The position numbers and the translations under genes are program-made. DNA of 64,000 nucleotides from Octopus vulgaris (lineage: Eukaryota): assembly GCA_951406725.2 (NCBI GenBank), contig OX597830.1, positions 186,001 to 250,000 on the forward strand. Reading direction: 5' to 3'. Shown here one piece after another: positions 837 through 961 of this stretch; position 1 is the stretch's first letter; each line of letters opens with the position of its first letter. The notes under the pieces were generated by a model. That model saw only the letters and a list, made by a program, of their open reading frames with translations. It ran no database searches and was not told where the DNA came from.

Positions 837-961
837 ATCTCTGACGAGGCCTTGAGATATATATATATAACTCATTTTTATACTGCATATTATCTCATTA
901 CATCTGACTAATATGGGCATAATGAGATACTCTTATCTACGGGCTGAAACAGCTGTAAGAT
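837..961 (+). ncRNA. Type I hammerhead ribozyme motif with long branched helix II insertion
   Basis: atct-CTGACGA-ggcct...gggct-GAAA-cagctg-TA-agat. The ~90-nt insert contains the stem tatctcatta/taatgagata. Confidence 0.75.

Follow-up and report, generated by a model that had tools for sequence, protein, structure and literature searches.

At positions 837-961 of a 64,000-nt stretch of Octopus vulgaris DNA (hereafter, the window), the two halves of a hammerhead ribozyme core lie about 90 bases apart. The arrangement raises the question of whether this is a hammerhead at all and, if it is, how the intervening bases are folded and what they do for the element that carries them.

The motif and its host element

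The core halves and their flanking helices were confirmed by inspection of the letters of 837-961, all of them on the forward strand. The 5′ strand of helix I (ATCT, 837-840) pairs with the 3′ strand AGAT at 958-961; the first core half, CUGACGA, occupies 841-847, where it was also returned by a motif scan; and the proximal helix II joins GGCCT (848-852), a strand supported by alignment and covariation, to GGGCT (941-945). These two strands are separated by an 88-nt helix II extension (853-940), delimited by predicted folds and covariation. Downstream lie the second core half, GAAA (946-949), a palindromic CAGCTG (950-955), and a GUA triplet (955-957), with cleavage predicted from the sequence to fall after A957; the self-complementary helix III, ACAGCUGU (949-956), has 2 bp in a monomer and forms an 8-bp duplex in a dimer (-11.1 kcal/mol). 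The elements that define a type I hammerhead—CUGANGA, GAAA, and UH, in that order—are found at 841-847, 946-949, and 956-957, respectively. The first pair of helix II is G·U in the window copy and G-C in subfamily A and part of subfamily B, and the 941-945 strand reads GGGCT in 4 and AGGCT in 25 of 30 close copies.

The hammerhead core at 837-961 is a genuine motif. Querying the genome for both core halves with GGC/GCY ends at a spacing of 40-140 nt returned 2,064 exact matches, as compared with none for the reversed pattern used as a control; together with the sequence itself, these matches bear out the intact core and ATCT/AGAT helix I reported in the first-pass annotation. It had been set beforehand that other copies should keep both core halves in register, and 28 of 30 close copies do so. 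A motif scan of the window that allowed a helix II of up to 200 nt identified two hammerheads in all, the one at 837-961 and a compact one at 456-498. Rfam returned no hammerhead match at E ≤ 10 in window positions 400-1050 or in nine family loci; it misses the compact hammerhead at 456-498 as well, so the blank says nothing specific about loop length.

Copy comparison places the motif within the 3′ UTR/pLTR of a 5′-truncated Penelope-like element (PLE) of subfamily C (653-1190), which continues at 1460-1580 as a leader-derived tail ending in (TA)n. The two parts are separated by a later insertion (1191-1459), likewise delimited by copy comparison, with a short (4-base) tandem tail; we take it to be a LINE-like 3′ end from its C-terminal motif. 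In an internal (TA)n of the host element lies the end of a much younger PLE (1-652), again on the forward strand, with its own compact hammerhead. The latter (456-498, +) is of type I, with a 5-bp helix II and a palindromic helix III, and belongs to a very young family with 1,215 candidates, 99-100% alike among the copies listed. The subfamily C insertion in the window is without an ORF. Upstream of the window (L050) are the remainder of the host 3′ UTR and an inverted, internally deleted copy, and a DNA search of the 2.8-Gb genome with positions 800-1000 returned 1,209 candidates, 40 of which were scored, with 89-96% identity among the matches listed. Elsewhere in the window are what we presume, from their motifs, to be Ty3/Gypsy-like gag-pol remnants (20108-22437, -), a decayed LINE (17057-19723, +), and a mariner-like transposase fragment (7711-8112, +).

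In full-length copies (L047, L084, L085, L103, L116), an RT/GIY-YIG ORF is flanked by two direct pLTRs, each of which contains the motif. In L047, two direct motif copies 4.6 kb apart surround a decayed ORF with RWK, DKT, the RT core, a CxCx5C linker, a C-terminal GIY-YIG-like block, and CxxC; the 3′ UTR beyond this ORF is long. The traits that mark PLEs—an ORF with RT and GIY-YIG endonuclease, direct pLTRs, and inverted truncated copies—are all present; Pfam recognizes no family in any of the element ORFs, so the Penelope-like call rests on motifs and layout. For the Hydra clade, section 11 and the alignment of PMC8557442 give RWK, DKT, CxCx5C, a C-terminal endonuclease without CCHH, CxxC, and CxH. 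Reading the translations by eye, RWK, DKT, CxCx5C, and CxxC were observed in L047, and an RWR variant, DKT, CxCx5C, CxxC, and CxH in subfamily A. Moreover, the 3′ ends of most of 30 copies run into (TA)n-type repeats, as expected of the clade's insertion into (TA)n. The short length ("generally <3 kb"; PMC8557442) and compact hammerhead of that clade are not observed: the unit here is 5.6 kb (5,600 bp in subfamily A), with an ORF of ~950 codons and a helix II domain of 82-110 nt. The host is likely a PLE of the Hydra clade, the clade having been assigned from motifs. Membership in Naiad was ruled out by the C-terminal endonuclease. A non-LTR retrozyme (short noncoding tandem repeats of 150-1000 nt, each with a hammerhead) was likewise ruled out, as the copies are dispersed truncated ends of a coding element, with no tandem array at the locus.

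The family's protein has a 99% match to an Octopus sinensis entry over 39% of the query, and relatives in O. bimaculoides and Argonauta. In subfamily A, the ATG lies 518 nt past the predicted cut; open frames of 955-962 codons occur in 3 of the 87 matches listed, and the one translated is frameshifted near its end. A subfamily A ORF (L084:3681-5138, -) has long Asn-rich insertions between RT and endonuclease, at ~950 codons versus ~700 in most homologues, and pieces of it bear the database label "GATA zinc finger domain-containing protein 14-like." A second Hydra-type ORF (L046:2618-4534, -), open over 639 aa and 35% identical to the subfamily A RT, is followed by a compact hammerhead-like motif.

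Fold of the helix II domain

The pairing common to the family, as drawn from predicted folds and covariation on the forward strand, runs through 855-859/934-938 and then, past a bulge on the 5′ side, through 871-876/921-926 and 884-886/917-919; it continues distally through 887-892/909-914 and 895-897/905-907 to an apical loop at 898-904. These rod pairs were defined by hand from predicted folds and evaluated in an alignment of 42 of 86 distinct extracts, picked to cover the subfamilies; the alignment excludes the deletion copy, the matches from metagenomes, the bulk of the near-identical C copies, and a copy whose TA run is very long. A single hairpin was the optimum for 39 of the 42 helix II domains (median z -4.1), and 31 of the 42 had z < -2 when the interior alone was shuffled. 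Across the 42 relatives, the rod positions were 80.7% paired with 91 double-change cells, a result matched by none of 500 shuffles, and slid controls gave 32-44%; two of five whole-structure measures, those counting pairs or pair types, were weaker for the rod (55/500 and 100/500).

Run without guidance on 18 sequences from subfamilies A, B, and C and two further families—D and E being omitted, as their A-tract misaligns—RNAalifold recovered the rod, with 18 pairs, 94% paired, 8 of which show double changes. Rod pairs as far as 15-25 bp from the core covary as well (second helix 97.5% paired, with double changes in 4 of 9 pairs). The misregister of subfamilies D and E limited RNAalifold, on all 42 rows, to the proximal helix plus a spurious pairing of the core. 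Parsimony counts on a tree gave three same-branch double changes for the rod against 0.55 expected (P = 0.016), as compared with one against 0.21 for a branched model (P = 0.20). Tree-aware support for the rod is real, if modest (three events). An asymmetric internal loop recurs at a similar position in subfamilies A-E. The conserved fold is thus modeled as an unbranched rod, in which CTCATT (871-876) is predicted to pair with AATGAG (921-926).

The first-pass annotation had proposed a different fold, in which the domain closed by helix II is a three-way branch bearing two hairpins, one of TGAG-(TA)n-CTCA and one with a perfect 10-bp stem. The corresponding letters are present on the forward strand (TGAG, 853-856; (AT)6, 857-868; CTCA, 871-874; inverted repeat, 891-900/920-929), and in the window copy branched and rod folds are equal in energy (-17.4 kcal/mol each, with a free optimum of -17.6), which explains the branched reading. 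In context, the 10-bp stem has a predicted probability of 0.72-0.80 and the TA hairpin of 0.01-0.77 in this copy, and 3 of the 42 relatives have a branched optimum. However, the branched pairs are no better than shuffles across the 42 relatives (69.1% vs. 69.4%; 358/500), the tree-aware count cited above is no stronger, and the 10-bp helix is 48% paired. Nor does the perfect stem, put forward as a conserved element, recur: it has a single match genome-wide, among 176 subfamily copies, having been perfected by two substitutions private to the window copy at positions where the family differs (893 and 898). Of the first 100 copies listed, 4 carry one of these substitutions singly and 1 carries the other, so that ~0.07 doubles would be expected among 176; a template-switch origin of the stem is possible but unnecessary. 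The TA microsatellite, read as a hairpin loop, falls mostly in the 5′-side bulge of the rod; it is the 3′ part of the 857-868 run that lies within the bulge. The run measures 7-15 nt in 29 of 30 measurable copies, and its counterpart in subfamilies A and B is a plain, nonrepetitive U-rich strand. The TA run is a slippage-expanded bulge. Helix II does appear to close a large domain, as first proposed, but the two sub-hairpins do not hold as a family feature, and we regard the branched model as very improbable.

Covariation supports closure of helix II in the family, and the helix is predicted closed in subfamily A (P about 1.0 in 13 of 13 rows) and open in the window copy in context. With its flanks, the window copy is predicted to form a competing hairpin that buries GAAA (P 0.90-0.97), as are two other subfamily C copies; the stretch 825-975 folds no better than shuffles (z -0.61), and the helix II domain alone has z -2.5. 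The window copy—an old, ORF-less, twice-interrupted insertion that is predicted to misfold—is therefore probably an inert relic. For the motif as such, we consider it probable that an intact type I hammerhead core sits in a PLE terminal repeat and that the ~90 bases between its halves form, as predicted, one long imperfect hairpin, likely an extended helix II.

The long arm as a lineage trait

Reducing the spacing in the genome pattern to 4-39 nt left a single match (control, 0), apparently a deletion copy. The long helix II is a trait of the whole lineage, and no one-off insertion. Spacing between the core halves is 82-86 nt in subfamily A, about 100 nt in B, 96-104 nt in most copies of C (to which the window copy belongs), and 94-110 nt in D and E. 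RT identity to subfamily A is 76-80% for subfamily C (L047) and 70% over 506 residues for L117, which has an E-type motif upstream; the rod is retained across both distances. A contig under a second organism label (X16) spans a subfamily A motif with one difference, and subfamily D and the non-GGCC families gave few hits to an ORF within 8 kb. Among loci selected by RT, the core is consensus in 35 of 36 rod copies, most of which are near-identical young copies; the pattern searches themselves impose the core, so that core conservation is partly circular.

Whole subfamilies, long-armed and compact, have a CCGANGA (U4C) core (L119:6467(+), L045:3390(+), L200, L152:3284(+), L155, L162), and the core of subfamily B2 is also U4C. 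At L062 and L123:7771, an E-type helix II is followed, as judged by eye, by a C-like downstream flank; the two may have been joined close to the cut site to give a chimera. A pattern scan of metagenomes gave 12 matches; none has the family rod or flanks (best model score 23.8 bits, 10 of the 12 having been searched), and they were set aside as chance or unrelated.

Outside this lineage, arm length varies more widely. Without the GGC constraint, 4,377 matches were found at a spacing of 50-140 nt (control, 0) and 2,737 at 8-49 nt (control, 2). Of 20 non-GGC long matches chosen for diversity among those listed, 16 folded as one hairpin and only 5 had z ≤ -2; 2 proved false, each pairing a compact motif with an upstream half that occurs there by chance. 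The figure of 4,377 must therefore be read as a maximum for that pattern. Three non-GGC families score 60-109 bits against a model built from the lineage. Across related families, helix II ranges between 21 and about 117 nt; in one group, forms of 21, 29, and 49-51 nt are nested on a common closing strand; the examined loci of 21, 25, and 51 nt share helix I. The nested forms and common closing strand suggest growth at the tip rather than a single insertion. The arm probably grew stepwise in this way, and the initial description of an "insertion" in helix II is doubtful, as the lengths in related families form a graded series. Every published Hydra hammerhead in File S2 of PMC8557442 is compact, whether it comes from cnidarians, a hemichordate, a sea cucumber, a copepod, or O. 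bimaculoides; the long state is therefore probably derived.

The published minimal hammerhead descriptor (stem II 3-7 bp, loop 2 3-10 nt; supplement of PMC4209133) cannot match this architecture, which is present in thousands of copies; the earlier suspicion that standard models overlook it, leaving the class under-counted, thus proved well founded with respect to that descriptor. Craig et al. (PMC8557442) also searched with looser descriptors and with a spacer of 7-17 nt, and describe half-cores in Naiad at a separation of 35-50 nt; loop 2 in their File S2 reaches at most 35 nt, in the non-Hydra element PLE-X1_sMoe, which is marked as deviating. No PLE helix II of 80-110 nt is described in the literature searched, though Arkhipova et al. 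2017 and Lunse et al. 2017 may contain examples of long helix II.

As in the Hydra-clade hammerheads treated in PMC8557442, including Hydra-1_Obim, the octopus motif is of type I, lies in the 3′ repeat of a (TA)n-inserting PLE with a C-terminal endonuclease, and has a short near-palindromic helix III and a variable first helix II pair; its 3′ half, GAAAC-AG..CTGT-A, is that of Penelope-1_NV and Hydra-1_aMil (PMC8557442). Unlike the Hydra motifs listed there, with a stem II of 3-7 bp and a loop 2 of 3-10 nt, the domain spans 82-110 nt. With the animal PLE hammerheads of PMC4209133 it shares a pLTR location, a short helix I, a poorly defined loop 1, a palindromic helix III implying dimers, and many sequence families per genome; the "larger than usual" helix II given in that source is 7-8 bp with a loop 2 of at most 10 nt, whereas the arm here has ~30 predicted pairs. 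The discontinuous Clec2 hammerhead of mammals (PMC6155905) is also natural, with core halves far apart, but it is of type III, with 150-1500 nt in helix I, and resides in mRNA, in contrast to the type I motif with a base-paired helix II expansion in a mobile element considered here. The "long helix II" hammerheads of chrysoviruses and megabirnaviruses (PMC13725137) are similarly of type I, upstream of an ORF, and with no evident loop-loop contact; their "long" helix II has 6-8 bp, and helix III in these viruses is already stable within a monomer. With chemistry and host class both known, the octopus motif is extreme in architecture but does not constitute a new system.

A still-young lineage has an intact core across an arm ~4 times the longest that the published descriptor allows, with compensatory changes along it, which argues for selection on the folded RNA. 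Ribozyme counts are too low in cephalopod and probably other invertebrate genomes. In addition, the lineage and its relatives provide a natural series of arm lengths with near-intact young elements, suited to tests of cleavage, circle formation, and RT binding.

Cleavage, copying, and the role of the arm

The role of hammerheads in PLEs is described as unclear (PMC8557442). We infer that the rod is selected mainly to stay closed, bringing CUGANGA and GAAA together. Helix III is self-complementary and too weak within a monomer, so the predicted cleavage after the equivalent of A957 would require two copies, supplied either by separate RNAs or by both pLTRs on a single transcript. Helix I has 2-4 bp, is 72.6% paired across relatives, and rarely forms in predictions. 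By inspection, no conserved complementarity between bulge and flank was identified across subfamilies that would indicate a loop I-loop II contact or pseudoknot; a pseudoknot of the helix II bulge with the 5′ flank was observed in part of subfamily A only and was rejected. As no conserved loop I-loop II contact is evident, the predicted cleavage would be expected to be slow. Such a contact is also missing from many published PLE hammerheads, and a need for dimers and low activity are reported for those of animals (PMC4209133). Cleavage followed by religation would yield a unit-length circle that RT may go round more than once.

Among 44 ORF-bearing copies, the 5′ ends show no clustering at the predicted cut, the nearest lying at -9 and +17; in 28 of the 44, cDNA passes the upstream cut site, by up to 2.6 kb, as copying beyond one unit would predict, and none starts there. 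The two pLTRs within a copy are 99.5-99.7% alike, as compared with 93.8-96.5% between copies in five of six pairs and 99.1% in the sixth. Run-through and pLTR likeness fit copying round a religated circle, along the lines proposed in PMC4209133, but fit an uncleaved tandem template as well.

This pattern bears on a reading in which the core cleaves hardly or no longer, with core and rod either retained for some other purpose (an RNP assembly site, for example) or simply carried along by passive inheritance. Consistent with that reading are the missing run-off footprint at the cut in those 44 copies, the weak helix I, and the spread of a U4C subfamily; in an anole PLE, moreover, hammerhead cleavage is dispensable in vitro and mutants are without effect on insertion (PMC11167929), and Craig et al. 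(PMC8557442) consider that the hammerheads may be mere parasites of PLEs. However, subfamilies with strongly diverged flanks have retained the core, the palindromic helix III, and a valid UH triplet (GUA/GUC), passive inheritance leaves the compensatory changes unexplained, and U4C reportedly leaves enough activity in vivo for a viroid (PMC3088659). We consider a spent ribozyme improbable.

A rod kept mainly for closure must also be weighed against a dedicated module that does more than close the core, whether as a handle for RT or a host protein, a double-stranded target of A-to-I editing, or a folding delay that times cleavage. The covariation of distal pairs and the recurrent internal loop reported above are in keeping with such a module, as is the near absence of short revertants from the lineage (1 of 2,065); furthermore, where young A copies are mismatched at the fourth pair, shortening the arm in silico lowers predicted closure from about 1.0 to 0.02-0.23. 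Yet arm length and sequence vary widely, from 82 to 110 nt in the lineage and 21 to 117 nt among related families, sister families thrive with a 21-nt arm, and neither a conserved loop motif nor a conserved pseudoknot partner was found across subfamilies; the RT-binding region of the anole PLE has been proposed to lie downstream of the start codon. On balance, a dedicated module appears unlikely. More tentatively, and as a possibility that we would not favor, the helix II of octopus Hydra-type PLEs may be an evolvable arm, extended repeatedly at its tip from 21 to about 117 nt, that now serves as a functional module—an RT or protein handle, an editing-sensitive switch, or a folding timer—controlling when the dimeric ribozyme cuts. 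If the module reading were true, thousands of ribozymes per genome would escape standard descriptors, and the graded series would constitute a natural experiment on the role of PLE hammerheads.

Two further observations concern sequence just past the hammerhead. Copies (L084, L163-L202) stop at two fixed points, about +205 and +388 from the cut in subfamily A; the window equivalents are at about 1150 and about 1580, and the longer end occurs in 14 of 30 subfamily C loci. These end points are much further apart than the 30-40 bp PLE tail, and may be two RT start sites as in PMC11167929. Separately, at L084:1293-1368, contigs of a run guessed to be RNA have clustered T>C differences, at 20 places versus at most 3 of any other kind. 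On the sense strand of the element these are A>G changes lying immediately 3′ of the cut, and they hint weakly at A-to-I hyper-editing.
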